A stretch of DNA of 64,000 nt from Verrucomicrobiales bacterium (GCA_031411295.1 JANOAV010000057.1:4379-68378); one strand, 5' to 3'; counted from the first letter of the stretch, positions 1 through 41,978 are shown. The notes: generated by a model not told the origin, from the letters alone. Made by a program: numbers and translations.

Positions 1-2081
1 TGGATGAGATGGTGCATGTGGCCAGTGAAATGGAGCGGCTTGGTTTCAAGACGCCATTGCTCATCGGCGGAGCCACCACCAGCGCGGCTCACACGGCCAT
101 TAAGATCGCGCCAAAATACAGCGGTCCCATTGTCCATGTGCTGGATGCCAGCCGCAGCGTGCCTGTGGCCACGAGTTTGATCAGCCAGGAACACCGTGCG
201 AAATTTGCCGCCGACAACGAAATCCGCCACGAAGAAATGCGCGCCAAGTATGGCCAGAAGCGCACGCAGGCCACGCTCACACTGACGGAAGCACGGGCGA
301 AGGGGTTCAAGTGCGATTGGAGCACCGTGGAAATTGCGGTGCCACGTGGCGGGGGCATTCTGCCCCCTAGCCCTGACACGCAGGGCATCACGCCAAGCAG
401 CGAGGTCAGCGCGGAGGGCTCTGCACATTCCTTGGCTGGGGGGCAGAATGCCCCCGCCACGGTTACATTCCTGCACCCAGAGAAGATGATCAGTCAGCTT
501 ACGGGCGGAAATTTACCGCACTGGCGACAGGACGAGGCAACGTATGCCGTGACATATCGCTTGGCGGACGCGCTGCCCAAACAGGTGCTAGAGATTTATG
601 CCGAGAAGAAAGCTCATTTACAGGAATTACTGGATCAAGAGCTAGCCGCCACGGAACCCGCCCAGCTTCGCGTGCAGCAGTTGACCAGCGATCTAGCGGA
701 CCTGTATTCGCAGACCATTGAGAAGGAGTTGGACGCGGGGCATGGCGCTTGTTATTTGCGACAGCCTGAGATTGCGGAACTGGTGCAGAATGCGATGAAG
801 CATTTCGACGGAGAGCGTTACAATCTGCTGGCTTGGTGCATTATGCCGAATCATGTGCATGTTATTGTCAGGCCGATAGGAACGCACACATTGAGCGGTA
901 TTTTGCACTCATGGAATTCGTTTACAGCGCGTGCCGCAAACAAGTTGCTGGGGAGAACAGGGGGATTTTGGCAAGGTGAAGCGTATGATCACATCATCCG
1001 CAATGAAACGGACTACAGCAACCAAGTCCGCTACATTTTAGGGAATCCGAGCAAGGCTAATCTTAAAGAATGGCTCTGGTGTGGCGGGGGCATTCTGCAC
1101 CCTAGCCCCGACACGCCGCGAGACAATCCATGCGTTGAGGGCTCAGCGCGTTCCCAGGCTGGGGGGCAGAATGCCCCCGCCACGGTTGCGACCTTGCGGC
1201 CGTTTATTGACTGGTCGCCATTCTTCCATTCATGGGAGCTGCGGGGACGTTGGAATGCGGCGGAACAGAAATTTTCCTCGGCTCATGAAGATCCTGAAAT
1301 GCGCGTGCAGGCGGACGAGCAAGCGGCCAAACTTTACGCTGATGCGAATGCGCTGCTGGATCGGATCATTAAGGAAAACCGCTTCACACCGAAGGGTGTT
1401 TATGGTTTCTTCCCGGCTAATGCCGTGGGCGATGACATTGAGGTTTACACCGACGAAACCCGCTCCGCCGTGCAGTGCAAATTCCACACGCTCCGGCAAA
1501 CGCAGATCAAGACCGGCAACAATCCTAACCCGAACTACGCGCTGTCCGATTTCATTGCGCCCAAGGATTCCGGTCGCGCAGATTACCTCGGCGGATTCAC
1601 CGTCACGATTCACGGGGGCGATGAATTTGCCAAAGAGTTCGATGCCGCCAACGATCCTTACTCCAGCATCATCGTCAAAGCCCTGGCCGACCGCCTTGCC
1701 GAAGCCTATGCAGAATACCTGCACCAGCAGGCACGGTTCTCCTGCGGCATCGAAAAGCCGGGCGATCTTTCCAACGAAGAGTTGATCCGCGAGAAATATC
1801 GCGGCATCCGCCCTGCGCCCGGCTATCCAGCCCAGCCGGATCACACCGAAAAGAAAACGCTCTTCACCCTGCTCAACAGCACGGAACTCACCGGCTGCGA
1901 ACTCACCGAGAGTTTCGCCATGCATCCGGGCGCAAGCGTTAGCGGCTTGTATTTCAACCATCCGCAGGCCCGCTATTTCGGCATCATGCACATCACGCAG
2001 GAGCAATTGGAAGAATATGCCGCCCGCAAGGAAATGCCGCTGAAGGAAATGGAACGCTGGTTGGGGCCATGGTTAGGCTGA
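1..2081 (+). CDS. metH: Cobalamin-dependent methionine synthase MetH, 5'-truncated by the window edge (end of B12-binding domain plus AdoMet reactivation domain), carrying an in-frame REPIN-RAYT insertion in the interdomain linker
   Basis: ORF 9..2081 is open to the window start. The N-part 'VASEMERLGFKTPLLIGGATTS.AHTAIKI..YSGPIVHV' matches my recollection of E. coli MetH C-terminal third. So do the C-part motifs 'IDWSPFFHSWEL', 'GFFPANAVGDDIEVY', 'IIVKALADRLAEAYAEYLH', 'GIRPAPGYPAQPDHTEK' and 'ESFAMHPGASVSGLYF'. The residues encoded by ~346-1187 do not match. Confidence 0.85.
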   Translation, partial: DEMVHVASEMERLGFKTPLLIGGATTSAAHTAIKIAPKYSGPIVHVLDASRSVPVATSLISQEHRAKFAADNEIRHEEMRAKYGQKRTQATLTLTEARAKGFKCDWSTVEIAVPRGGGILPPSPDTQGITPSSEVSAEGSAHSLAGGQNAPATVTFLHPEKMISQLTGGNLPHWRQDEATYAVTYRLADALPKQVLEIYAEKKAHLQELLDQELAATEPAQLRVQQLTSDLADLYSQTIEKELDAGHGACYLRQPEIAELVQNAMKHFDGERYNLLAWCIMPNHVHVIVRPIGTHTLSGILHSWNSFTARAANKLLGRTGGFWQGEAYDHIIRNETDYSNQVRYILGNPSKANLKEWLWCGGGILHPSPDTPRDNPCVEGSARSQAGGQNAPATVATLRPFIDWSPFFHSWELRGRWNAAEQKFSSAHEDPEMRVQADEQAAKLYADANALLDRIIKENRFTPKGVYGFFPANAVGDDIEVYTDETRSAVQCKFHTLRQTQIKTGNNPNPNYALSDFIAPKDSGRADYLGGFTVTIHGGDEFAKEFDAANDPYSSIIVKALADRLAEAYAEYLHQQARFSCGIEKPGDLSNEELIREKYRGIRPAPGYPAQPDHTEKKTLFTLLNSTELTGCELTESFAMHPGASVSGLYFNHPQARYFGIMHITQEQLEEYAARKEMPLKEMERWLGPWLG
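346..460. repeat. REP doublet (REPIN) 1
   Basis: GTGGCGGGGGCATTCTGCCCCC (346-367) and its perfect reverse complement GGGGGCAGAATGCCCCCGCCAC (439-460) are separated by 71 nt. Each arm contains its own GGGGGCA/TGCCCCC hairpin. Confidence 0.9.
486..1079 (+). CDS. REP-associated tyrosine transposase (RAYT, IS200/IS605 Y1 HUH family) coding segment. It has no stop codon of its own and is read through in the metH frame.
   Basis: ATG at 486. Motifs: 'GNLPHWRQDEATYAVTYRLADALP', HUH motif 'MPNHVHVIVRP', and 'GGFWQGEAYDHIIRNETDYSNQVRYILGNP' (catalytic Tyr region). The C-terminal boundary is approximate. Confidence 0.75.
1081..1183. repeat. REP doublet (REPIN) 2
   Basis: GTGGCGGGGGCATTCTGCACCC (1081-1102, one mismatch to copy 1) pairs with GGGGGCAGAATGCCCCCGCCAC (1162-1183), spacer 59 nt. 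Confidence 0.9.
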
Positions 2082-3353
2082 GTTTTCCGCCGGTTCATCC
2101 GGCACCGGGAAACATCCCCGACTCATCAATAGGACCATCAGCAGCGGCGCATACAGGCCGAGGGAAACCAGCATGGCCAACCGGGACGGCTCAGCGCTTG
2201 CGTTGGCCCAAGGGAGACCCCAGGCCTGCAAAACTTGCGACCAAGCAACCTGCCAGAACGTCCACGCGGTATTCAGCGCCACGATGGAGAACAGCGCAGC
2301 TGCCAGCCACCAGCCCCATTTCGCGCGGCGGATGACGGCCCGTTGCGCTAACCAGAAGCCTCCGATCAGGAGCGCCAGCACTCCCCAGCCACCCGCTCCA
2401 GAGATCAACTGGCCAGCCAGCGGCAATGCCGGAGCCAGGAAAAATTGCGCCGCTAGAATCACGATGGCCCACCAGCAACCGATCCAGAGCATGAGGAGCG
2501 GCTCGGGGATATCATCTGTCCAGCGTGCAGTCGCATCGGCCCTGCGGCACAGATGAGGCAAGTAAGCTCGCTGATAAATGGCAATGATGACGAGTGGAAG
2601 GGCAATGCCGAAGATTCCCACCAGCAGCAGGAGCCGACCAATGCTCAGCGCCACACTGTGCTCGATGTTACCGGAGGTCGGAGTTAGGAGGAACACCCCA
2701 GCGGTAATGACCGCCAGCCCGATTAACACCGCCAGCGCCACAAACCAACCACCTGCGTGAATCAATGGCACCGACCACCGCCGCCGCCGCAGCGAGCCCA
2801 GCCCAGCCATGGCCAACGCCATGGCCGGCACGCCCGTCAACCAAGTCTGGACCAGCGCTTGGCGGATCCACGGACCGCGGTCCGACCCCGTTTCCTGACA
2901 CGCTTTGACCCAGACGGGTGGAATCGTGCAGGCCAGCAGCATGGCTAGGAAAATCAGCACCATTCCGCCAATCACCAATCCCACGCCACGCTCTTCCCAG
3001 CCCGTGTCATCCCATGTTTCCTCCACCAATTCGTGGGCCATACTCTCTTCAGCCTGGATCAAGCCAGTGGGAAGTGCTTCCTCATGCCCTTCGGCCAAGG
3101 CGCTCACGGCCCAAGGCGCGATGATTTCTTCATCCAGCTCCGCGGGCGCAGGCTCGGAGGGCTCATCCATGGCTTCCGGCTCAGGCGCGGCATGCAACTG
3201 CGCTGCCAAGGCGTTGAGATGGGGGAAAGCGGGATGTTCCGTGAAGGCCATGGCGGTCCGTGGCTCTGGCGGAGAGATTGTTGCGACCTGTTGCAACAAT
3301 TCTTGTAAATTCGGGAAATCGGGTGATGTGTCAGGGGAGGACGCGGCGGCCAT
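2073..3353 (-). CDS. Polytopic membrane protein of unknown function (acidic N-terminal region followed by many hydrophobic helices)
   Basis: 426-aa ORF. Repeated ~20-aa hydrophobic stretches (e.g. 'VLIFLAMLLACTIPPVWV', 'WFVALAVLIGLAVITAGVFLL', 'LLLLVGIFGIALPLVIIAIY'). No recognisable catalytic motif. Confidence 0.65.
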   Translation of the reverse strand: MAAASSPDTSPDFPNLQELLQQVATISPPEPRTAMAFTEHPAFPHLNALAAQLHAAPEPEAMDEPSEPAPAELDEEIIAPWAVSALAEGHEEALPTGLIQAEESMAHELVEETWDDTGWEERGVGLVIGGMVLIFLAMLLACTIPPVWVKACQETGSDRGPWIRQALVQTWLTGVPAMALAMAGLGSLRRRRWSVPLIHAGGWFVALAVLIGLAVITAGVFLLTPTSGNIEHSVALSIGRLLLLVGIFGIALPLVIIAIYQRAYLPHLCRRADATARWTDDIPEPLLMLWIGCWWAIVILAAQFFLAPALPLAGQLISGAGGWGVLALLIGGFWLAQRAVIRRAKWGWWLAAALFSIVALNTAWTFWQVAWSQVLQAWGLPWANASAEPSRLAMLVSLGLYAPLLMVLLMSRGCFPVPDEPAENSA

Positions 3354-7696: not shown

Positions 7697-8071
7697 ATGA
7701 AGACACCCTTCACACGAATTCGTTGGTCCGCCGTTCTGCTGGGCCTGGCCGTTGCGGTTGGCGTGTGGGGGGCTTGGCGATACACCCACCCGAAGCCAGA
7801 TACAGCCAACGTGCAGTTACCTAACTATGACGGTCCGATGGCTGAGCGGGATTACGCAGGCGGGATGAAGCGGTTTCTGGTTTACGGTTTGAACACCGCC
7901 AGACCAGCGCTCCCAGCGCAACTGACTGAGGCTGGGGTCAGCTATTTTGAGGTGGCTGGTTGTGTGCCCCCGATCGATTCCATTGCAGGCATTCGAGCTT
8001 ACAACGATCAGATGAGAATTTTACTCCAGAGGGACACGGGATTGGATCTCACCACCTTCCTCCCCCGCTGA
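7697..8071 (+). CDS. Hypothetical membrane-anchored protein
   Basis: ATG at 7697 and an N-terminal hydrophobic helix 'WSAVLLGLAVAVGVWGAW'. No recognisable domain. Confidence 0.45.
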   Translation: MKTPFTRIRWSAVLLGLAVAVGVWGAWRYTHPKPDTANVQLPNYDGPMAERDYAGGMKRFLVYGLNTARPALPAQLTEAGVSYFEVAGCVPPIDSIAGIRAYNDQMRILLQRDTGLDLTTFLPR

Positions 8072-29372: not shown

Positions 29373-30795
29373 CCACCGTCTTGGGATTCGCCTTGCCGCC
29401 GCTCAGCTTGATCACTTGGCCCTTCAGTGCGTTAATGCCCTTGGCGTTGCCGGCTTTGATTTCGCTCACTAACTTCTCGTTCGCAGCAATGACTTGGGCA
29501 ATGTAGCCGTCGATTAGACCAGTGTCGGACACTTGCTCGAAGCCCTTCTCCTTAGCGATCTCAGCGGGATCGCCACCATTGACGGCCATTTCTGCGAAGA
29601 CTTCCTTGGCTTGGTTGTTGCTGATTTTATTTGAATCCACCATGCCAACTAACGTTTTGAGTTGTGCGGGCTCTATGCGGGAAGTCGCCAGCGTTTCACC
29701 TGCGGCATTCAGTATGCCTAGCAAATCATTGATCACCCAGTTGGCGATGCTCTTGGGCTTGGCAGATCCTTCTGCGGCCACTTCGAACCAATCCGCTAGT
29801 GCCGGATCGCTGGCTAGAACGCTCGCGTCGTAATCACTCATCCCATATTGGGAAACGAAGCGCTCACGCTTGTCATGCGGCAACTCAGGCAACGTGGACC
29901 ACACGCCTTCAACAATTTCCGCTGTGTGCAATGGCACGAGATCTGGATCGGGCAGATACCGGTAGTCATGTGCATCTTCCTTGGTCCGCATGATGGAAGT
30001 TTCCCCCCGATCATCGTCCCACCGACGCGTGCTCTGGATCTGCGGGATGCCTGCGCTGAGTTCGGCAGTCTGACGTTCGATTTCGAAATGAATCGCGCGA
30101 CGCACTGCGCTAACGCTGTTGAGATTCTTCAGTTCCACCTTGGCGCCCAACTCCTTTTGGTCTTCTGGGCGCAGGGAAATATTTACGTCACAGCGCATCT
30201 GGCCTTTCTCCATATCGGCATCGCTCACGCCCGCATAGACCAGAATTTGCCGCAGGCTGTTAAGGTAAGCCACGGTTTCTTCGGCGCTTTCCAGTTCCGG
30301 CTCGCCCACAATTTCCATCAACGGAGTGCCCGCGCGATTGAAATCAATGATGCTGTTGCTAGCCAAGTGGCTGCTCTTGCCCACGTCTTCCTCCAAGTGA
30401 ATCCGCGTCAGGGCGATGACCTTTCCGGGCCGCTGGATGGACTTCTGCGCATCCTTGGGATAAGCCAGATCATAAAGCGGCACGCCGCCACCCAGACACA
30501 GCGGAAGGTCCGTCTGGGTGATCTGATAATTTTTCGGCATGTCCGGGTAAAAGTAATTTTTCCGATCCCACTTCACCATCGGCGGAATGGAGCAGCCCAG
30601 CATCATCCCGGCCACAATCGTCATCTCAATCGCCCGCTGATTCAGCACCGGCAACGCCCCCGGCAGGCCCAGGCAGACCGGACAAGTATTCATATTCGGC
30701 CCAGCCCCAAAGCTGGTGGGACAGGCACAGAACATCTTGCTGGCAGTCTTCAACTGACAGTGAACTTCGAGTCCAATGGTAACGAGATAAGGCAT
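29344..30795 (-). CDS. gatB: Asp-tRNA(Asn)/Glu-tRNA(Gln) amidotransferase subunit B
   Basis: The canonical N-terminus 'MPYLVTIGLEVHCQLKT' starts at 30795. 'GLPGALPVLN', 'RKNYFYPD.PKNYQI.Q', 'IHLEEDVGK' and the C-terminal YqeY-like region follow. Confidence 0.95.
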   Translation of the reverse strand: MPYLVTIGLEVHCQLKTASKMFCACPTSFGAGPNMNTCPVCLGLPGALPVLNQRAIEMTIVAGMMLGCSIPPMVKWDRKNYFYPDMPKNYQITQTDLPLCLGGGVPLYDLAYPKDAQKSIQRPGKVIALTRIHLEEDVGKSSHLASNSIIDFNRAGTPLMEIVGEPELESAEETVAYLNSLRQILVYAGVSDADMEKGQMRCDVNISLRPEDQKELGAKVELKNLNSVSAVRRAIHFEIERQTAELSAGIPQIQSTRRWDDDRGETSIMRTKEDAHDYRYLPDPDLVPLHTAEIVEGVWSTLPELPHDKRERFVSQYGMSDYDASVLASDPALADWFEVAAEGSAKPKSIANWVINDLLGILNAAGETLATSRIEPAQLKTLVGMVDSNKISNNQAKEVFAEMAVNGGDPAEIAKEKGFEQVSDTGLIDGYIAQVIAANEKLVSEIKAGNAKGINALKGQVIKLSGGKANPKTVGELLEKHLL

Positions 30796-31000
30796 GGAAA
30801 TAGCAGCGCGTGGGGGATCAATAAAATGGTATCCCGCCAGCAGAGCATCAATTTCCCAGCGGGGAAACAGGAAAGTTTCCGGGAAGGAGATCTCGCACGT
30901 AGCGGCCGAGTTTTTGACGCCAGCATCCCGCAGGGGATTGGCAGGGCGCTGGCCTCGATACTCGGCCTCTAAGGCTGGGAGCTCCCTTTCGAACCGACTG

Positions 31001-33517
31001 CTAGCCTTTGTTAATTGCATCGGCGGATGCCATTTTCTGTAGGAGCCTCTCGATATTTTTTCTAATTGTGATGCTTTCGGGATGGTCTCTGCCTAATGAC
31101 GCTTCAGTGATCCTAAAAGCTTCCGCCATCATATGATTTGCTTCCTTCAGACGGCCTGCATCCTGAAAAACTTGTGCGAGGTTGTGGAGGCGGAGTGCGA
31201 CCTTGGGATGGTCTTTACCGTAATAAGCTTGATCAATTGCCAGGGAGCGCTGCAACATTGCCTGGACCAAAGGCGAACGATTCATCATCCTCAGAAGTCC
31301 ACCAAGATTATTCAAGCCAACAGCTACACTAGGATGATCCTTTCCAAGGCAGATCTCATCGATAGCTAGCGCCCGTATCATCATTGGTTCCGCTTCTTCC
31401 AAACGGTTCGTATCTTGTAGTAAAATCGCGAGGTTATTGAGGTCCCCCGAGACTGACGGATGGTCTTTACCAAAGGTTGCCTCATCAATGGCAAGTGCTC
31501 GTCGCATCATCATTTCCGCCTCATCAAAGCGATTGGTTTTCTGGAGCACAAGCGCAAGGTTGTTCAGGGAGCTGGCCACATTAGGATTATCCTTACCAAG
31601 GGTTGATTCGGTTATGGTAAGCGACCGACGCATCAGAAGTTCGGCCTCTGCGAGGCGATTCGTTTCAAGTAGCAACTGGGCATGCTCATTGCAGGCACAA
31701 GCAATAAGCCTATCATCGTTAAGCGTCTCCGCTTCCGAGGTTGCCTTGACGCTCTGCTTCTCTGTCTCATCCCACTTGGCGAACTTGCGAAGGAAGGCAG
31801 ACAGCCGGATACGAGCCTCCACGCGCCCCTTGCTGAGCGGCATCGTTTCCAAATGATCCCGCAGAAATTCCACGCGGAGCTTAGACCAGTTTTGAAAGTC
31901 AAGTTTCCCAGCCATTTCTTGAAGCCTCTGGGAAAATGCTTCCAGGCCGCCTTGGCGCTGCGTTTCCCAGCACTGGATTAGCTCCTGCATTTCATCGAGA
32001 TAATTGAATTCAGGCTCGTCGAGTCGGTCGGTAATCCAGCGGGCGGTTGTATCCAGCGGGAGTTGCTTTAGCTCATGCTTGAGGAGTTCAGGCCGCTCTG
32101 TTTCCCCAACGCTCGTGAGCTTGGTGATGAGCTTAAATTTTTCTGATGCCTGTTCCTCTGCTAAGCCGACGGTGGAAAGGTAGCTGAGGGTTTCGGCGGC
32201 GTTTTCGTCGAATTCCCCGGCTTCCAGACGTCGCCAGTATTCTTCTTTCTTCTGGCGGCGGTATTCGTCTTGTTCGTAGAAGGCGGCAAAGAAATCTGTG
32301 AGCAGTGGAATGCGGAGGCGGGCGGCTCGGCTGATGTTCATGGCCAGCCAGAGATCGAAGAAGCCTTCACGAATCACGTAGAGCGAGGATCGGCCATCAG
32401 CGGGGTTCTCGCTGGTGGTGAGGTAGAGAGATTTGGTTAAGCGAGTTAGCAGGGCGGAGACATGCGGCTGGCTCATGCGCATGAGCTTGGCGATGTTCCC
32501 GGGCGTCTTCGGCAAGGCGGAACGGCCCCATTGGTCGCGCATGGAGGCAATGGTCTCGATGACGGCGCGCTCCTGCGGGGAGAGATCGCTGAGGCGGTCT
32601 TGATAGAATGGTGTGATGCGGTCCAGAAGCATCATGAACTGTTGTTTCACCGCCGTGACGGATTCGGTGCTGAGCAGTTCGTATAACATTACGGTGAGCC
32701 GCGGGCTGCCACCGGTCATCGTGTAAATGGCGCGGAGTTTCGGCTGGAGGCTGGGAAATTGCTGGAGCAACGCCTCGTTTTTATCCCACTCCAGACTGCG
32801 GCGGATGAGAGCGATGGTCTCGTCCTGACTCAGCTGGTCGAGGACTTGGGTATCGAAGAAATCGTAGAAGGGTTGATCTGCCTTGGTCAGCGCTCCGAAA
32901 TGCAGCGGAGAGGTGGCCATGAGCAGGCATCCATTGTCCTGCATCAGGAAGCCGCGCAGGCCTTGAATGGACTGCTCTTTGCGGATTTGCTCCTCCATGA
33001 TTTGGTTCAAATTTTCCACCATGAGCACGAACACTTGCTGGTGCTCTTGATAGTGTTTCCGCAAGGCGGGGACCACGGTATCGATGATGACGGCATCGTC
33101 CTCCTGCATTGCTAATTTCTCATGCAGTGCGTGCCACGCAGAGCCAGTGGGGCTGGTGTCCCGCAAGACCTCGCAGATGGTTAGTAGAAAATCAGCGAAT
33201 GACAGGACTCGGCGGGCTTCCTCTGGAAATCGCACAACGCGGTAGGCAGCCGTCAACGCTGGATCCCGCTGAATCTCATCCTCAATGAGGGAAAGGAAGT
33301 GCGTCTTCCCACCACCACGCGGAGCGATAAAGAGCTGATGATGACGCGCCTTGCGCCCAACGTTTCTACGCAGGACTTCCAGCGTGTCTGCCAGGATGGT
33401 ATCGCGCCCCACGGTGATGGAACGTCTGTGCTCAGGACTGGTGAGGTGAGCACGGTAAAGCCCTAGCTGCGACCGGGGTTCGCTAGTTTTGTTGGGTTCG
33501 GTGAGGAGATCAGGCAT
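31001..33517 (-). CDS. P-loop ATPase (ORC/Cdc6- or STAND-like) with a wHTH-like segment and C-terminal KLC/TPR_12-type repeats
   Basis: Walker A 'IAPRGGGKTH' and 'VFVLMVENL' at the Walker B position. wHTH-like 'LMRMSQPHVSALLTRLTKSLYL'. At least 5 tandem ~42-aa repeats of the type 'LGKDHPSVA..LNNLA.LL...R..EAE...RAL'. Confidence 0.85.
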   Translation of the reverse strand: MPDLLTEPNKTSEPRSQLGLYRAHLTSPEHRRSITVGRDTILADTLEVLRRNVGRKARHHQLFIAPRGGGKTHFLSLIEDEIQRDPALTAAYRVVRFPEEARRVLSFADFLLTICEVLRDTSPTGSAWHALHEKLAMQEDDAVIIDTVVPALRKHYQEHQQVFVLMVENLNQIMEEQIRKEQSIQGLRGFLMQDNGCLLMATSPLHFGALTKADQPFYDFFDTQVLDQLSQDETIALIRRSLEWDKNEALLQQFPSLQPKLRAIYTMTGGSPRLTVMLYELLSTESVTAVKQQFMMLLDRITPFYQDRLSDLSPQERAVIETIASMRDQWGRSALPKTPGNIAKLMRMSQPHVSALLTRLTKSLYLTTSENPADGRSSLYVIREGFFDLWLAMNISRAARLRIPLLTDFFAAFYEQDEYRRQKKEEYWRRLEAGEFDENAAETLSYLSTVGLAEEQASEKFKLITKLTSVGETERPELLKHELKQLPLDTTARWITDRLDEPEFNYLDEMQELIQCWETQRQGGLEAFSQRLQEMAGKLDFQNWSKLRVEFLRDHLETMPLSKGRVEARIRLSAFLRKFAKWDETEKQSVKATSEAETLNDDRLIACACNEHAQLLLETNRLAEAELLMRRSLTITESTLGKDNPNVASSLNNLALVLQKTNRFDEAEMMMRRALAIDEATFGKDHPSVSGDLNNLAILLQDTNRLEEAEPMMIRALAIDEICLGKDHPSVAVGLNNLGGLLRMMNRSPLVQAMLQRSLAIDQAYYGKDHPKVALRLHNLAQVFQDAGRLKEANHMMAEAFRITEASLGRDHPESITIRKNIERLLQKMASADAINKG

Positions 33518-34742
33518 AATATTTTTTCCACCATTGTTTCACAAGACCGCTGGCGAAATCGAAGCTGCCAGGCTTGATTTCCACGACGTAGAAATCATTC
33601 TCCAGGTCGCGCAGGAGTTGATTGAAGAGTTGCTTGCGTTTGTCCGCAGGGGATTTGTCGCCTTCGGCCACGAGCACTCGCTCGAACTCGGCAAATAGTG
33701 GTGACCGCTCCATGGCTGCGTGGCTGACGCTGAGTTTCGCCAGAAGGGCGTAGGCGGCTGCGCGTTTGGGTGGCAGGTAATATTGCTCAATGCGGGAGTA
33801 ATAATGCTGGAGCTTGTCCCGAGCGCCACTGGTGACGATGAGATCAGCAAAAGCCCGCAGCACATCCTTGGTGGTGAGTGCTCGGGCGGATCGCTTCCAG
33901 ATACGATAGAGGTCCTGAGTCACCATTTGGAGAAACACCGGAACGGGGCGGCCGAGTTCTTTGGCAACTTTGGCGGGAAGCTTTTCTTCAAACGCTACTC
34001 CTCGTCCCTTGAGCATTCGGACCACAAACTCCATCACCTGCTCCTGATTCAGGGCCGGGAGCGGAACATCGGTGAAATCATTTATCTCGTCCAAACAGCC
34101 CATGCCGTCCAGCGTGCTAGAGAGATTCACGGAACCGCACAGCAGCCACCGAACTTGATCCTGCTTGGGATGCGGCTTCAGGCGATGTCCACGAAACCAT
34201 GCCAGAAATGGACGGACTAGCTCGGGATGGTGTTTCTGCATGTTCAGAATCATGTCAGGAAACTCATCCACCAGCAGGAGCAACCGATGCTTACTCTTCC
34301 TGACTTCAGCAAAGAACTCATCGCCATATTTCTTCCAAGATGCAGTCCAGTCCTTTTCCTGATGGCGCAGAGTGAGTTTGAATCCCTCGTTTCCCAAACT
34401 CTCTACTTTCTCCAACGCCTTGCCGATCCATCCCGTTGTGGCTCGGAACATTTCCTTGAAGCGCTGGGGATACTTTTCCCGGAATAGGTCCAGCAGCAGC
34501 AAAATAAACTCCGCAGGATGGGTCGCGTCCTGAACAAAGACTGAAACAGGTGAAAAGGCTGAGGGCGGGTGAGCCACCAGAAAATCCAACACGCTCGTTT
34601 TCCCTGTCCGCCGAGGCGCTGAAAGAATTACGTGAGCCAGACGCAACTCTTCGTTCAAGTCAGCAATAAACGCCTCCCTGAACCAGAGGTCATCGGGTTC
34701 CATGGGGGCTCCAGTGTAGAAATCAGGGGGCGGCTTGCTCAT
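33510..34742 (-). CDS. AAA+ ATPase of the archaeal-ATPase/ORC-like type (PF01637-like by recollection)
   Basis: Walker A 'SAPRRTGKTS', Walker B 'LLLLVDEFPD', 'LLCGSVN'. The stop overlaps the next gene's start by 8 nt (ATGCCTGA). Confidence 0.85.
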   Translation of the reverse strand: MSKPPPDFYTGAPMEPDDLWFREAFIADLNEELRLAHVILSAPRRTGKTSVLDFLVAHPPSAFSPVSVFVQDATHPAEFILLLLDLFREKYPQRFKEMFRATTGWIGKALEKVESLGNEGFKLTLRHQEKDWTASWKKYGDEFFAEVRKSKHRLLLLVDEFPDMILNMQKHHPELVRPFLAWFRGHRLKPHPKQDQVRWLLCGSVNLSSTLDGMGCLDEINDFTDVPLPALNQEQVMEFVVRMLKGRGVAFEEKLPAKVAKELGRPVPVFLQMVTQDLYRIWKRSARALTTKDVLRAFADLIVTSGARDKLQHYYSRIEQYYLPPKRAAAYALLAKLSVSHAAMERSPLFAEFERVLVAEGDKSPADKRKQLFNQLLRDLENDFYVVEIKPGSFDFASGLVKQWWKKYYA

Positions 34743-34750
34743 AATTTAGA

Positions 34751-34826
34751 AGACAGATTCGTTGTAAAACAGATTTGTTTTATAAATAACGTGAGACAGA
34801 TTTGTTGCAAGACAAATTTGTTTTGT
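34751..34826. promoter_or_regulatory. Array of four ACAGATTTGTT-like 12-mers (two ~30-bp direct repeats) in the AT-rich leader of the ATPase pair
   Basis: ACAGATTCGTTG 34753, ACAGATTTGTTT 34769, ACAGATTTGTTG 34796, ACAAATTTGTTT 34812. Spacing is 16/27/16 nt. The array starts 11 nt upstream of the start codon at 34742. Confidence 0.5.
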
Positions 34827-34992
34827 ATTTATTTCATCTAGAAACGGGCGCAGGCTGAGCAGAATCATGCTGGGCCGTCGCATGATGTTGGCTAGGGATG
34901 GGGAGGGAGTCGGCTGCGGGTGGTGCCGACTGAGGACAGGCGGCACACGTTCCTGACGGATATGGTCCCCCATCAACCAAGGGTTTGATCTC

Positions 34993-38023: not shown

Positions 38024-38166
38024 GAAGCATCAATGCTAAATTCTGCGTCCGCTGTAAATAGGATTTCCGCCGTGAGTGCGGGAGCAAACGATCCGTAGAT
38101 CAATAAACAGAAGTTTCCGTGAAATGCGCGTTGATATTGCTATGCAACTCTGCCAACTTTCAATCC

Positions 38167-38889
38167 ATGGATTTTCCTGTCACTATCTGGACTCTCATTC
38201 ATCAAGCGCACCTGAATGGCAATACCGCTGCCCGCAGCGCCTTGGAAACGTTTTGTGAACAGTATCGACAGCCCGTAATCCAATTCCTGCGGCAACGTAA
38301 GGTGCTGGAGAATCGCGTTGAAGACATGGCCCATGATTTCCTGCTTCATCTCATGGAAAACGATGCCCTGCGGCGGGCCAACCCTGCCCGGGGCCGCTTC
38401 CGCACCTATCTACTAGCCGCTCTGCGAAACTTCATGGCCTCGGACATCGCGCACCAGAATGCCGGCAAGCGTGGGGGCGGAGCCAATCACCTCAGCATCG
38501 ACCTCCCGGACGTGGCCGATTTCCTGGCCGACCCGGCAGATCCTGAAGTTACCTCCCATGACCAAGCCTGGGCGGTTAACCTCATCACCGTCAGTTATCA
38601 AGCACTCGAGCAGGAACTCATCGCCAAAGGCAAAAGCGAACGCCTCGCAGCGCTGAAAAGTTTCGTGCTGCCAGGCCGCGCGCTCCCGTCGATGCTGGAA
38701 GTTGCCCAGGAACTGAATCTGGAGGAAGGGGCCGTGCGCACCGAGATTTCCCGCTACCGCAAACGCTTGCGCGAACTCTTCCGTGACGAGGTCGCCCGCA
38801 CCGTCGTGTCCGACACCGAGATCGAGGACGAAATCCACTACCTCCAGCAGGTCCTTACCAACCCAAGGGTTCCCATGCCCGAAGCGTAA
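38167..38889 (+). CDS. ECF-type sigma-70 family RNA polymerase sigma factor
   Basis: ATG at 38167. Sigma-2-like 'AHDFLLHLME...FRTYLLAALRNF' and a sigma-4 HTH 'EVAQELNLEEGAVRTEISRYRKRLRELF'. Confidence 0.75.
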   Translation: MDFPVTIWTLIHQAHLNGNTAARSALETFCEQYRQPVIQFLRQRKVLENRVEDMAHDFLLHLMENDALRRANPARGRFRTYLLAALRNFMASDIAHQNAGKRGGGANHLSIDLPDVADFLADPADPEVTSHDQAWAVNLITVSYQALEQELIAKGKSERLAALKSFVLPGRALPSMLEVAQELNLEEGAVRTEISRYRKRLRELFRDEVARTVVSDTEIEDEIHYLQQVLTNPRVPMPEA

Positions 38890-38999
38890 ATATCACCCGC
38901 CGCAAGAAACTTAGTAACACTGCCAGGAAAAATCCGTATTACTAAGAGAATAACAGCTGATCACTACCACCTGCGCGCGACTTCGCTGCGCCTCGATTC

Positions 39000-41978
39000 A
39001 TGGAAACCAACTGCCAACAGTGCGGCCAGGCCCTCATAGCGGGTCCAGGAGAATCCATGTTCTGCGCCAGTTGCGCCATGAACGACTTCCTGAACGAAGC
39101 CGCGGACGTGCCCACCCTCGTTGCCAGCGCCCCAGTCTCCGCCAAAGGCCGGGCCGTCATCGAAGGCCACGAACTTATCGAAGAACTCGCCCGCGGCGGC
39201 ATGGGTGTCGTTTACAAAGCCCGTCAACTCAGCCCGCGGCGGGATGTCGCCCTCAAAATGCTCCTGCCCGTGGGGGACAAGCTGGACGAATTCCGGGAAC
39301 GCTTCAGATTAGAAGCCCGCGCCCTGGCCGAGTTGGACCACCCGAGTATTCTGCCACTCTACGTGGCCGGAGAGCATGAAGGCATGCCCTTCTTCACCAT
39401 GAAACTGGCCCTCGGCGGTTCCCTGGCGCAATTACTCAAGGCCGGCAAGAAGCTCGATTTCAAGACCATCGCCAACCTCATCGCCACCTTGGGGGAAGCC
39501 GTCTTTTACGCCAACCAGCGCGGCATCCTCCATCGGGACATCAAACCCGGCAACATCCTCTTCGACGAAAACCAGCAACCCTTCCTGGCCGACTTCGGAC
39601 TCGCCAAATTAATCGGCGGAGATCCCGCCAACACCATGTCCATGGCCGCCATGGGCACCCCCTGCTACATGGCCCCGGAAGTCGCCACCCACGGAGCCAA
39701 ATCCGCCACCGCCAGCAGCGACGTTTACGGCCTCGGAGCCGTCCTCTACGAACTCCTGGCCGGCAAGCCCCCCTTCCAAGTCGAAGGCCTCGGAGCCATC
39801 CTCAAAAAAGTAGCCGAAGAAGCCCCCGAAGCCCCCTCCACCCTCGCCAAAGGCGTCCCACGCGACCTCGAAGTCATCTGCCTAACCTGCCTCGCCAAAG
39901 ACCCCAAAAAGCGCTACAGCACCGCCCAAGCCCTCTCCGAAGACCTCCAACGCTGGCTCCACGGAGAGCCCATCACCGCCCGCCGCGTCGGCCCCGCCGA
40001 ACGCCTCTGGTCCTGGGCCAAACGTCATCCAGGGTTGGCAGGCATGAGCGCTGCGCTGCTGGTGACACTGAGTGCGGGGAGCGCGTGGCTGTGGGTGCAG
40101 AACTTGAGACTGGATGCGGCACTCGTAAAGGAAAGCCAAGCCAAGCGGGAGGCCCTCCAGAATAATTTGGCATTACAAGACCGAATCGAGTTCCTAACTG
40201 GTGATTTTGCGGACTACATGGAGAGCATAGGAAGGATCGATCTATTGGAGATGGTCTGGAAGGACTTAGACAAAACCTATTCTTTGGGGGCTAACTTGAA
40301 CGTTGCGGCATCCGGACAACTCAGGAGAAGCAGGCTGCTCTCCCGATGGAGTCGCGCTCAACAATTACAAGGCGAGTCTCAATCAGCTGTCGAGTTAGCC
40401 CAACGAGCCGTGGATGCGGTGGCCGACGCTTCGACATTGCCAGATTATGACACCCAGCAAGGAATAGAAGCGCTTGGGACAGCAAAGATTGCAATGGCTG
40501 AGGCACAAGCCGGACGCGGTGATTTTCAGGCGGCTATGCAAACATTGGATTTTCTAAGCCAAAGTCCGTCAAGTGAGCCGATCCCTTTATTGTCAGCCGA
40601 GGTTGAACTGGCCAAGACAGCCACGATTCTTCGCATTAACTCTAGCAGCGAGATTGGTGAGGAAGCATCGAAGCATGCTGAACTGGCATTGACATCGGCT
40701 CAGCAAGCCTTCCAGTCGAACTCGAAATCAGCAATTTCAATCGAAATACTGGGACGCTCCCTCTTGGCGAAAGCGGAGACAACCCTCGCGAAACTTGGAA
40801 TGATGGACGCACCAGCGATGGCAAATTTTGAGACGTTGAGGGCCAATGCACCACTATCATTATACAAAAATGCCGCAGAATTCCTAGCCAATGCGATGAA
40901 GGAGACGCCAAAAAACTCTAGCCTGACACGACACTATAATGATGCAGTAAGTAGTCAGATCTACATCCTAAACCGGATGCCCGGAAGGGAAATGGAGGCT
41001 GAGCAATCGTTGCGAGCTAATGTGGCAAGGCTGAAGTTATTGGCTGACCAAGACCCATTAAACTGGCGCTGGAAACTCGACTTGGCTGATGCTTACTCTG
41101 CATCAGCCACATTATTTCGTCGGAAGGGTGAATTACCCGAGGAATTAAGTAGTCGAACTCAATCCTGTGAGACGGCTAGGCTTGCCCTCGAAGCTGCTCC
41201 TGAGGGATATCGCCCCTCCCTATTGGTTATCCGGTCGGAGAAAGCACTTGGGGAGTTGCACCTCAAGCAGGGTAATGTGGATGCTGGAAAACGTTCATTC
41301 GAGATCTCCCTCCAAACAGCTCATGGATTGTTGGCTCGTCACGGACACAAGCTTACCGAGGTTCTTGGCTACAAAAAGGTCATGGAAGAAATGCTCGGTG
41401 AGCTTGCCAAGGTTTCCCCTGACGCGGGAATTGAACTGTCCCGCCGCGAAATGAGTTGGATTGAGGAATTTGGCGGCACCTCCCCCAGCAGCCCGTGGGT
41501 TTACGCCGCAGCAGCTGCGCAACGTCGCCTTGCCAGTGCGCACAAAGCACGGGGCGATTTTGCAGAAGCAATGAATTACACCCAGCAAGCCCTGCTTAAA
41601 CGGGTAGCGCTCCTGCGGCAGACTTGGGAACCTGAGCGGCTTGATGGCGATGTCTGGCACGGCTATCAAGAAATGGCGAAATTGCAAGTGCACGAAAACA
41701 TGATTACAGAAGCCCTGGAAACGGCCGAGCAAGCCCTGGCAATACGCAGGGAATTCCCCCACCTAAAGAGCAGCCGCCATCAATGGTGCGCCCCCTTATT
41801 GGAAGTGTTGAACAAGGCCCTCTCAACTGGAGGTCCTACCACCGTGCGGGCTGAAAGTATAGCAGGATTGGCTTACGACCTTCTCTACGGCCCCGATCAG
41901 CCAAAAATTGAGAGCGCGGAGGACCAACTAGCTGCCGGGATTTTAGAAAAGTCGAGGAAGTTGCCAGCAGAACCATAA
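39000..41978 (+). CDS. Membrane Ser/Thr protein kinase (Hanks type): N-terminal zinc ribbon, one TM helix, ~620-aa helical/TPR-like extracytoplasmic region
   Basis: CxxC...CxxC 'CQQCGQ...CASCA'. Kinase motifs 'GGMGVVYKA', 'VALKML', 'HRDIKPGNIL', 'DFGLAK', 'YMAPE'. TM 'GLAGMSAALLVTLSAGSAWLWV'. Confidence 0.9.
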   Translation: METNCQQCGQALIAGPGESMFCASCAMNDFLNEAADVPTLVASAPVSAKGRAVIEGHELIEELARGGMGVVYKARQLSPRRDVALKMLLPVGDKLDEFRERFRLEARALAELDHPSILPLYVAGEHEGMPFFTMKLALGGSLAQLLKAGKKLDFKTIANLIATLGEAVFYANQRGILHRDIKPGNILFDENQQPFLADFGLAKLIGGDPANTMSMAAMGTPCYMAPEVATHGAKSATASSDVYGLGAVLYELLAGKPPFQVEGLGAILKKVAEEAPEAPSTLAKGVPRDLEVICLTCLAKDPKKRYSTAQALSEDLQRWLHGEPITARRVGPAERLWSWAKRHPGLAGMSAALLVTLSAGSAWLWVQNLRLDAALVKESQAKREALQNNLALQDRIEFLTGDFADYMESIGRIDLLEMVWKDLDKTYSLGANLNVAASGQLRRSRLLSRWSRAQQLQGESQSAVELAQRAVDAVADASTLPDYDTQQGIEALGTAKIAMAEAQAGRGDFQAAMQTLDFLSQSPSSEPIPLLSAEVELAKTATILRINSSSEIGEEASKHAELALTSAQQAFQSNSKSAISIEILGRSLLAKAETTLAKLGMMDAPAMANFETLRANAPLSLYKNAAEFLANAMKETPKNSSLTRHYNDAVSSQIYILNRMPGREMEAEQSLRANVARLKLLADQDPLNWRWKLDLADAYSASATLFRRKGELPEELSSRTQSCETARLALEAAPEGYRPSLLVIRSEKALGELHLKQGNVDAGKRSFEISLQTAHGLLARHGHKLTEVLGYKKVMEEMLGELAKVSPDAGIELSRREMSWIEEFGGTSPSSPWVYAAAAAQRRLASAHKARGDFAEAMNYTQQALLKRVALLRQTWEPERLDGDVWHGYQEMAKLQVHENMITEALETAEQALAIRREFPHLKSSRHQWCAPLLEVLNKALSTGGPTTVRAESIAGLAYDLLYGPDQPKIESAEDQLAAGILEKSRKLPAEP

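Follow-up and report, generated by a model that had tools for sequence, protein, structure and literature searches.

A mobile pair of ATPase genes with a conserved operator leader: a putative STAND switch and candidate conflict system in Verrucomicrobiales and other bacteria

Background

How might two overlapping ATPase genes, one of them ending in a putative sensor and neither encoding a recognizable effector, act together as a system? The question is raised by a locus in a 64,000-nucleotide stretch of DNA from a Verrucomicrobiales bacterium (GCA_031411295.1, JANOAV010000057.1:4379-68378; this whole stretch is what we call the window), in which the gene for a small ATPase, here the small subunit, runs into the gene for a larger one, the large subunit (Table 1). 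An earlier reading of the sequence alone, referred to below as the original prediction, had described the pair as a possible horizontally acquired module and as a candidate sensor or conflict system resembling the STAND (signal transduction ATPases that have numerous domains) NTPases.

Here we describe the pair through predicted structures, profile and structural searches, and a comparison of related loci across bacterial genomes. Our reading is that the locus is an autoregulated, horizontally mobile operon for a STAND switch made of a sensor and a partner, probably serving as a conflict system, and we put the probability of this reading at roughly one half. Each component is of a known fold class, namely STAND, ATPase_2, the kinesin light chain (KLC) type of tetratricopeptide repeat (TPR), and the MarR-like winged helix-turn-helix (wHTH). 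The combination of an obligate, coupled pair of nucleotide-binding oligomerization domain (NOD) proteins, a sensor with a Glu-Asn (E-N) Walker B motif, no effector, and a leader with four boxes is new to PADLOC v2, NCBIfam and the searched literature.

Results

Architecture of the two proteins

In its AlphaFold2 (AF2) model (pLDDT 84) the large subunit runs from a nucleotide-binding domain (NBD) through a helical domain (HD) and a winged-helix domain (WHD) to a helical arm and a C-terminal TPR array, and the modelled architecture is that of a STAND-type NTPase with a TPR sensor. The NOD, made up of the first three domains, starts about 25 residues from the N-terminus, the TPRs end the protein, and the WHD is its sole HTH. 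Residues G270, P272 and R273 of the GxP motif in the HD are invariant down to 20% identity, and the arm has conserved columns at W517, R521, G523 and E526 among the large homologues. A Foldseek search with the full model is dominated by the TPR domains of KLC1/2 (35-39% identity), the only match informative for the NOD being the STAND-TPR structure of Pyrococcus horikoshii PH0952 (6MFV), which aligns over 793 columns. In Pfam the repeats are recognized as TPR_10 (7e-42) and TPR_12 (5e-38), with four to five units at residues ~600-830, and Tandem Repeats Finder shows no DNA-level repeats in this part of the window. Curated STAND profiles find only AAA_22 (E 0.093) in the large window protein; among its relatives, thresholds are passed in P0402 by nSTAND1 (30.6 bits, cut-off 27.1) and ATPase_2 (35.6 bits, cut-off 33.2) and, in a Moraxella relative, by NACHT (30.2 bits, cut-off 26.7). 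The WHD gives a MarR_2/HTH_27 match at residues 312-380 that falls short of the Pfam threshold in the window protein and passes it in relatives, and HTH signatures of the MarR/TrmB/IclR type are found in the WHD of large proteins. Sequence searches of the PDB, with the single proteins and with the family profile, returned nothing significant. The layout proposed originally, a STAND-type NTPase with a C-terminal TPR sensor in which a wHTH-like segment is followed by a helical region and KLC/TPR_12 repeats, is borne out by the AF2 model, the 6MFV match and the profiles of relatives, with the wHTH now typed as MarR-like and the repeats numbering about five.

The small subunit is modelled (pLDDT 86, pTM 0.82) as a P-loop core, a helical lid and a C-terminal winged helix. 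Its closest PDB structure is 2QEN (E 3e-11, TM 0.61/0.70), the Walker ATPase PABY2304 of Pyrococcus abyssi and a member of the ATPase_2 family; archaeal ORC/Cdc6 (1W5T, 1FNN) come next among the structural matches, then RuvB and RFC, and the NOD of Avs3 (8DGC) appears at rank 37. The ATPase_2 profile PF01637 does not match the small window protein at E up to 0.1, and its best Pfam match is nSTAND1 at 20 bits, under the cut-off of 27.1; PF01637 is present in members of the small-protein family, with 34.5 bits (cut-off 33.2) in a Clostridium relative. Going by the model, the small subunit is an ATPase_2/Orc-Cdc6-like NOD without a sensor. In an alignment of 33 homologues, R44, R45, G47, K48, D159 and E160 are invariant, as is a WW(K/R)KYYA tail that follows the winged helix and belongs to a fuller motif, DLENDFY...WW+KYYA.

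When the profiles of the small and large proteins are compared with hhalign, homology is found with a probability of 89.6% (E 1.9e-6) over 350 columns spanning NBD, HD and WHD, and by this profile comparison the two proteins are distant paralogues with paralogous NOD modules. All of the motifs quoted in the original prediction are present (SAPRRTGKTS and LLLLVDEF in the small protein, IAPRGGGKTH and LMVEN in the large). In place of the canonical hhhhD[DE], the Walker B of the large protein reads hhhh-E-N, with E168 and N169 invariant in 35 homologues and N169 kept in relatives at ~20% identity (VENL, VENL, IENL, VENL and IDNL); the small protein keeps its invariant D159-E160. Because Asn replaces the catalytic Walker B acid throughout the family, the large subunit probably binds ATP and hydrolyses it poorly. 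The small subunit would be the hydrolysing partner and the large subunit the hydrolysis-impaired one.

The two genes are joined by an 8-nt overlap, in which ...TAT TAT GCC TGA is read over ATG CCT GAT, so that translation of the small gene stops within the first codons of the large one; the gene positions and overlap sequence given in the original prediction were confirmed. An overlap of this form (ATGnnTRA) is found at almost every readable junction, in about 60 loci from at least eight phyla, and is likewise kept in the Clostridium relative at ~22% identity. It probably couples the translation of the two genes, and TGGTGG, from the WW codons upstream of the large-gene start, could serve as a Shine-Dalgarno-like element.

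The leader

An alignment of the regions upstream of the small gene in 66 non-identical loci reveals a leader of four units, each a 16-bp imperfect palindrome ACAAC-N6-GTTGT. In the family consensus these units follow one another as R1 to R4, with an AT-rich spacer between R2 and R3 (Table 1), and lead through G-nAA into the ATG start codon. A TTGACA-like -35 element lies within unit 1, a TATAnT -10 element begins at the end of unit 2, and units 3 and 4 occupy the short 5' untranslated region ahead of the start codon. Of 69 unique leaders, 41 have a -35/-10 pair at this promoter position with three mismatches or fewer. Nothing else in the 64 kb of the window matches the family position weight matrix (PWM) as well as the four boxes do (13.7-19.0 bits), and no further box cluster occurs there. 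TTGCAA at the junction of R1 and R2 is the likely -35 element of the window, and the -10 element likely lies within the AT-rich spacer, at an uncertain exact position. A terminator and promoter scan of the window alone did not rise above shuffled expectation, the promoter being visible only through the family alignment, and Rfam recognizes no RNA family at the locus or in the leader. The iterated 12-mers described originally in the leader are real as repeats, though they are four 16-bp imperfect palindromes and not 12-mers.

In the 1.18 Mb of related loci, 52 of the 82 have a cluster of three or more boxes, which with one exception stands immediately upstream of the small gene. The exception, a second box cluster at one locus (L042), was considered as an independent target and rejected, being a duplication of the leader together with ~20 codons from the start of the small gene (2895-3040, 7880-7990) that lies ~5 kb upstream of the intact cassette. 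By eye, ORFs in the intervening ~5 kb resemble a transposase of the IS110 type, a P-loop protein akin to zeta toxin, and an ArsR regulator accompanied by a permease, and the arrangement looks like a mobile-element insertion into or beside the cassette. Also set aside was a 75-aa gene called across the leader (window 34746-34973, minus strand; a public call in the identical contig L008), which is probably spurious since its ORF covers the leader and boxes and the sequence upstream of the leader is unconserved between lineages.

Palindromes also accompany the promoter in distant plasmid relatives. In Clostridium estertheticum pCF003-70 (~22% identity), a palindrome that retains the AACAAATTTGTT core of the boxes overlaps TTGACT-17-TATAAT, and in Moraxella osloensis pNP7-2, two copies of a differing palindrome, AACTATAAAATTATAGTT, bracket TTGACT-17-TAATAT. 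The constancy of the box sequence across host phyla argues against a host regulator, and a layout that is kept while the box sequence diverges in one lineage is what would be expected if the binder is encoded by the cassette; as the boxes lie across a near-consensus promoter, the economical interpretation is repression. These patterns argue for autorepression by a cassette-encoded winged helix. The recognition helix of the small protein, RKQxFNQLL, is near-invariant (KQ is kept in the Clostridium relative and lost in the Moraxella relative) and that of the large protein is more variable, which makes the small winged helix slightly the likelier binder; the comparison of three operator types offers a weak hint in the same direction. 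The original suggestion of a transcriptional output through the wHTH gains real support, as far as the link to transcription goes, from this conserved operator-promoter leader.

Distribution and mobility

A word-seeded search returned more than 400 homologues of the small protein and more than 700 of the large, often on shared contigs. Scanning 185,579 species genomes gave 168 relatives, from which 79 loci were kept, belonging to Verrucomicrobiota, Kiritimatiellota, Planctomycetota, Acidobacteriota, Latescibacterota, Binatota, and Alpha- and Gammaproteobacteria; the pair and its leader recur in at least eight phyla, and the wider family is also found on Firmicutes plasmids. In an all-versus-all clustering of flanking ORFs, the small gene was present at 82 of 82 loci and the large gene at 80, and since no other real gene family occurs in more than seven loci, there is no hidden third component. 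The pairing is kept in the Clostridium and Moraxella plasmid relatives at ~22% identity.

On six cassette-bearing contigs, one of them from the window's organism, the pair is adjacent and in the same order and the neighbours differ each time: DsbD and cytochrome b in Methylomonas, RNase II and propionyl-CoA carboxylase in Competibacteraceae, DJ-1 and Tex in a Verrucomicrobiota metagenome-assembled genome (MAG), Band_7 and SUKH immunity genes in a second Verrucomicrobiota MAG, and peptidase S13 in a Verrucomicrobiales MAG. Ten immediate neighbours at five further loci are mostly housekeeping genes (GlnD, GNAT, citrate transporter, ABC ATPase, aminotransferase, GCS2), with one DUF6361 gene among them. 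Verrucomicrobial small proteins are mutually 45-72% identical, and their nearest relatives often come from other phyla. In the clearest case of transfer, between a Latescibacterota locus (L036) and a Terriglobia locus (L047), the small proteins are 94.7% identical, with the similarity confined to the cassette and unrelated flanks. Two further sets that seemed to represent cross-phylum transfer were dropped: in L029 (Gemmatimonadetes) versus L030 and L057 (Latescibacterota), and in L010 (Verrucomicrobiota) versus L011 (Kiritimatiellales), ~10 kb around the cassette is syntenic, so that these cases are probably differences of labelling, the MAG taxonomic labels being inconsistent, rather than transfer.

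In the window the cassette lies between gatB and a BatA-domain gene. Relatives with BatA proteins 89%, 78% and 64% identical to that of the window have neither the pair nor gatB beside BatA, and as BatA synteny is not conserved at all, the comparison establishes variability and yields no clean empty site. The same BatA matches put the window's organism near Chthoniobacter and Chthoniobacteraceae. In the relative with the 89% identical BatA, the closest one with genomic context (L092, 11902-13970), a DDE transposase and a reverse-transcriptase gene stand downstream of BatA in place of the cassette, and this chromosomal neighbourhood appears to be prone to rearrangement.

The proposal of a self-contained, horizontally moving two-ATPase module holds up, given its presence in at least eight phyla, its unrelated flanks and the lack of a conserved third gene. 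Homologous pairs do co-occur in variable contexts outside this genome, about 80 loci in all showing one gene order with the 8-nt overlap, and the gatB-pair-BatA order expected of vertical housekeeping inheritance was not recovered in relatives.

A partial copy of a cassette was seen on the 289-kb plasmid CP157006 of Methylomonas sp. AM2-LC (L089, 8513-10396). Its 1.9 kb, 98.5% identical to the chromosomal cassette (CP157005; L001, 8519-10402), includes the leader and the complete small gene but just ~180 nt of the large one, with no large-subunit ORF after them.

Sensor variation and links to conflict systems

An exhaustive search with the N-terminal 590 residues of the large protein, taken to E up to 1e-10, gave 3,218 clusters of 50% identity; in essentially all of the full-length matches listed, the aligned part begins within ~50 residues of the N-terminus. 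The C-terminal arrays of the family vary between TPR_12, TPR_1/2, PBS-lyase HEAT and TPR-S, the number of TPRs among orthologues ranges from 0 to more than 8, and a TPR-less large version of 524 residues exists. Three Competibacteraceae loci (L002 10229-12382, L003 10229-12886, L004 8350-10629), identical in the DNA of the leader and small gene and in the first 600 residues of the large protein, carry 2, 6 and 3 TPR units of 42 residues respectively, differences that may reflect real turnover or a collapse of repeats in short-read assembly. Immune-type STANDs typically exchange and turn over their sensor repeats while the NOD stays constant.

Three Pirellula loci (L082 9223-16800, L084 5889-13397, L087 9223-17227) keep the small gene and the 8-nt overlap and have large subunits of 2,500-2,670 residues with weak TPR-S repeats. 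That of L082 contains a PIN-TPR-GreABC PIN domain (28.8 bits, cut-off 27.8) and that of L087 a TIR_2 domain (34.3 bits, cut-off 28), the latter also matching PADLOC bSEFIR (4.8e-11); apart from this match, PADLOC gave only weak P-loop and Csa3/CARF-HTH matches on relatives. Beyond the PIN and TIR domains, more than 1,000 residues of the Pirellula proteins are conserved without a Pfam match. Defence-related genes also adjoin the plasmid copies. The Moraxella copy is flanked on one side by Qat anti-phage genes together with a kinase and transposases, and on the other by a dUTPase and an N6 DNA methylase; the Clostridium copy adjoins DUF3800, a GIY-YIG nuclease and an integrase.

Composition and setting within the window

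The pair, gatB and the BatA-domain gene are all on one strand. The pair has a GC content of 0.541 against a window mean of 0.570 (sd 0.018), which is at the 2.8th percentile among segments of the same size; gatB is at 0.552, and the GC3 of the pair, 0.62-0.63, falls within the span of the other window genes (0.55-0.73). A distinctly higher AT content is confined to the TPR end (GC 0.50) and the leader (0.48), and much of the deficit of the pair sits at codon position 2 and therefore reflects amino-acid composition. The AT-rich islet reported originally was thus overstated, being true of the TPR end and leader and not of the pair as a strong compositional island.

The longest ORF for gatB has its start at 31020 and shares 20 nt with the end of the large gene. 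The conserved GatB N-terminus (MPYLVTIGLEVH) starts ~75 codons later, so the true gap between the large gene and gatB is probably ~200 nt, and no convincing terminator was found between the two (window 30795-31020). Elsewhere in the window, at 38119-41978 on the plus strand, translations point to a 256-aa sigma-factor-like ORF and, after it, a Ser/Thr protein kinase of 992 aa whose C-terminal region is long and helical. Directly upstream of a Terriglobia cassette (L034, 1097-7456, minus strand), a DUF6361 protein and then ORFs of 638 and 1,074 aa lie on the opposite strand, and this group may be another multi-gene system.

Table 1. Features of the cassette in the window; nucleotide positions are counted from the first letter of the window
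Feature	Nucleotides	Residues	Strand	Basis
Small subunit gene, 410 aa	33510..34742		(-)	ORF call
Large subunit gene, 838 aa	31001..33517		(-)	ORF call
Overlap of both genes, 8 nt, ATGCCTGA	33510..33517		(-)	sequence read
Small NBD		~38-227	(-)	AF2 model
Small Walker A	34596-34619	A42-T49	(-)	alignment of 33 homologues
Small Walker B	34263-34283	L154-E160	(-)	alignment of 33 homologues
Small helical lid		233-321	(-)	AF2 model
Small C-terminal winged helix		326-396	(-)	AF2 model
Large NOD module	32366..33517		(-)	AF2, alignment
Large N-terminal conserved peptide LGLYR...	start of NOD		(-)	alignment
Large NBD		24-225	(-)	AF2
Large Walker A	33302-33325	A65-T72	(-)	alignment
Large Walker B-like FVLMVEN	33011-33031	163-169	(-)	alignment
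Large HD with GGSPR (GxP) motif		231-311	(-)	AF2
Large MarR-like WHD		314-384	(-)	AF2, Pfam signature
Large helical arm, conserved across the family	31718..32365	385-600	(-)	AF2 helices
KLC-type TPR array, ~five 42-aa repeats, with short tail and stop	31001..31717	601-832 (repeats)	(-)	Pfam, AF2
Box R1 AAAACAAATTTGTCTT; consensus ACAACAanaTTGACnT overlaps -35 element	34809..34824		(-)	PWM 19.0 bits, best in 64 kb
Box R2 GCAACAAATCTGTCTC, promoter spacer; consensus ACAACAATaTTGTcGT then TATAnT	34793..34808		(-)	PWM 13.7 bits
AT-rich spacer ACGTTATTTAT, likely -10 region; family columns atAtTtAttTAt	34782..34792		(-)	family alignment
Box R3 AAAACAAATCTGTTTT, at or just past predicted transcription start; consensus ACaACAAtTnTGTTTT	34766..34781		(-)	PWM 18.2 bits
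Box R4 ACAACGAATCTGTCTT, ends 7 nt before start codon; consensus ACAACaaanTtGataT	34750..34765		(-)	PWM 16.1 bits

Discussion

The biological role of the pair is probably one in conflict or defence, most likely as a sensor of invaders or of stress. The label of conflict system is circumstantial, with the TIR and PIN fusions and the defence genes beside plasmid copies in its favour, and several findings weigh against it. Neither window protein matches a family in PADLOC-DB v2 at E up to 0.1, NCBIfam recognizes only the TPRs and has no family for the pair, and a phage collection gave no cassette-bearing match. Chromosomal neighbours are mostly housekeeping genes, not defence islands, and the composition of the pair is close to that of the host. 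As the original prediction stated, neither protein has an effector or transmembrane module (in Pfam, NCBIfam, PADLOC or the AF2 models), and this includes both termini of the large window protein; effector domains are likewise absent from most family members checked, TIR and PIN being found only in Pirellula L082 and L087. The sole box-cluster target found in the window and the 1.18 Mb of related flanks is the cassette's own promoter, either winged helix might be the protein that binds it, and that of the large subunit, which occupies the canonical STAND WHD position, need not bind DNA. The differing repeat numbers in Competibacteraceae, moreover, may be an artefact of assembly.

Part of this evidence would equally suit a STAND transcription factor outside of conflict, of the MalT, PH0952 or LAL kind, in which the TPRs would sense a metabolite or a host protein, the small ATPase would be a co-regulator or anti-activator, and the targets would be the cassette's own promoter and a distant regulon. 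Besides the housekeeping neighbours and the want of an effector domain, such a factor would account for the NOD-arm-TPR layout, which is that of PH0952, itself a predicted STAND-TPR transcription factor, for the MarR/TrmB/IclR-type signatures in the WHD, and for the four promoter boxes, which resemble arrays of MalT boxes. We regard it as possible, if doubtful: no targets are transferred with the cassette, which moves alone into unrelated contexts, box clusters occur nowhere but at its own promoter in 1.18 Mb of flanking DNA, and their overlap with near-consensus -35 and -10 elements points to repression rather than activation. Orthologues fused to TIR or PIN, relatives on plasmids and in defence islands, and the rapid turnover of sensor repeats that is typical of immune sensors are also hard to reconcile with it.

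The likeness of the small protein to archaeal ORC/Cdc6 with a C-terminal winged helix, and the four direct 16-bp repeats that flank an AT-rich spacer right upstream of its gene, bring to mind a selfish or mobile DNA-transaction module instead, that is, an initiator or partition ATPase acting on iteron-like repeats in replication, maintenance or addiction. Copies on plasmids and a patchy distribution across phyla would agree with this. The spacer is just 11-12 bp, however, and coincides with the -10 box, most copies are chromosomal amid housekeeping genes with no conserved integrase, relaxase or replicon genes nearby, and known replicons have no role for a STAND-TPR sensor such as the partner; we consider a module of this sort improbable. 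A vertically inherited housekeeping pair tied to gatB and the BatA-domain gene is far less credible again and is effectively refuted by the context data. It would fit the host-like composition and the common strand of the four genes, yet neither the pair nor gatB stands beside BatA in the three BatA relatives compared, cassettes at 60-73% identity occupy quite different contexts, and a scan of 185,579 species genomes produced just 168 matches.

With an autoregulated, mobile STAND switch operon as the preferred reading, the following cycle can be proposed. A strong sigma-70 promoter would drive both genes, and the 8-nt overlap, by coupling their translation, would cause both proteins to be made together. 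At rest, one of the winged helices, probably as dimers on the four palindromes, would repress the promoter, and the large subunit would be an autoinhibited STAND until its TPR array binds a trigger, probably a foreign protein. The trigger would open the NOD, and ATP binding would drive hetero-oligomerization with the sensorless paralogue; the E-N site would make the ATP-bound state long-lived, and the small paralogue would supply hydrolysis and reset. The effector-less version might produce its output by derepressing the operon, by letting the winged helices occupy DNA, or by recruiting an unlinked factor, and in Pirellula the output would presumably be degradation of NAD+ or RNA by the fused TIR and PIN domains. 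The promoter, coupling and repression steps draw on direct sequence evidence, and the trigger, assembly and output steps on STAND biology as known from PH0952 and MalT (PMC6468293).

Among described systems, the PH0952/MalT clade shares the NBD-HD-WHD NOD with its GxP motif, the helical arm and the C-terminal TPR sensor, and likewise a connection with transcription and DNA binding. In PH0952 an ArsR-like domain stands at the N-terminus (PMC6468293). Unlike these proteins, the pair lacks a separate DNA-binding effector domain (no C-terminal LuxR and no N-terminal ArsR or SARP domain is found in the large window protein), and it has an E-N Walker B, KLC-type TPRs of 42 residues and an obligate, coupled second NOD protein. 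Avs/AVAST and bNACHT systems have in common with it a STAND NTPase with a variable repeat sensor, a patchy horizontal distribution and, in some of the orthologues described here, TIR or PIN domains; the pair differs from them in having two genes, no N-terminal effector (the NOD opens the protein in every full-length family member listed) and a conserved, putatively autoregulatory leader, in usually lying, among the contexts viewed, outside defence islands, and in matching no PADLOC Avs or NLR model. With ATPase_2 (PF01637, 2QEN) and archaeal Orc1/Cdc6 the small protein shares the PRRxGK[ST] P-loop, the hhhhDE Walker B, the lid and the C-terminal winged helix, and unlike them it is bacterial, falls under the Pfam threshold, is coupled to a STAND-TPR paralogue and has a distinctive invariant tail. 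The conflict systems built on TPR-GreAB-C-PIN and TPR-S (PMC7159879) are approached by the Pirellula orthologues, through the PIN-TPR-GreABC PIN domain and weak TPR-S repeats, and by the other family members with TPR-S; the window protein has none of these domains. A term search of Kaur et al. 2020 (eLife, PMC7159879) turned up nothing on a two-ATPase pair of the MarR/Orc type, and the pair was not described in the literature searched on nSTAND1, TPR-GreAB-C-PIN, paired bacterial NLRs or PF01637.

A functional analogy can also be drawn with the paired plant NLRs (nucleotide-binding, leucine-rich repeat receptors) and with NAIP-NLRC4, where likewise two NOD paralogues, one of them with sensing repeats, are co-expressed in fixed proportion. 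On this analogy the pair might be a bacterial counterpart of paired sensor/helper NLRs, in which a hydrolysis-impaired TPR sensor would nucleate a hetero-oligomer with a sensorless, hydrolysis-competent NOD, the winged helices would carry the output on DNA, through promoter release or DNA binding in place of an enzymatic effector, and TIR and PIN would be later add-ons. We offer this version tentatively and think it rather unlikely. The eukaryotic helper bears an executioner (CC or CARD), whereas the small protein has just a winged helix; the hetero-oligomer is here a proposal only, and no evolutionary link is implied past the shared STAND fold.

Conclusions

If the preferred reading is right, the pair would represent a large, uncatalogued family of NLR-like switches that extends from Verrucomicrobiota to Firmicutes plasmids, and, should the sensor/helper version also be true, a widespread system of immune or stress sensing that defence catalogues have missed. 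For the biology of bacterial STANDs, it would introduce an obligate pairing of NOD paralogues, analogous to that of sensor and helper NLRs, and an operator and promoter that travel with the genes. The family also offers an experimental handle, with two genes, a 75-bp control region (34750-34824), natural versions whose TPRs number from 0 to more than 8 and others with TIR or PIN outputs, through which one could ask how output arises from a STAND that lacks an effector and in what way an active ATP site works together with a degenerate one. Even if the pair is only a regulator, it would still be a new architecture for a STAND transcription factor.

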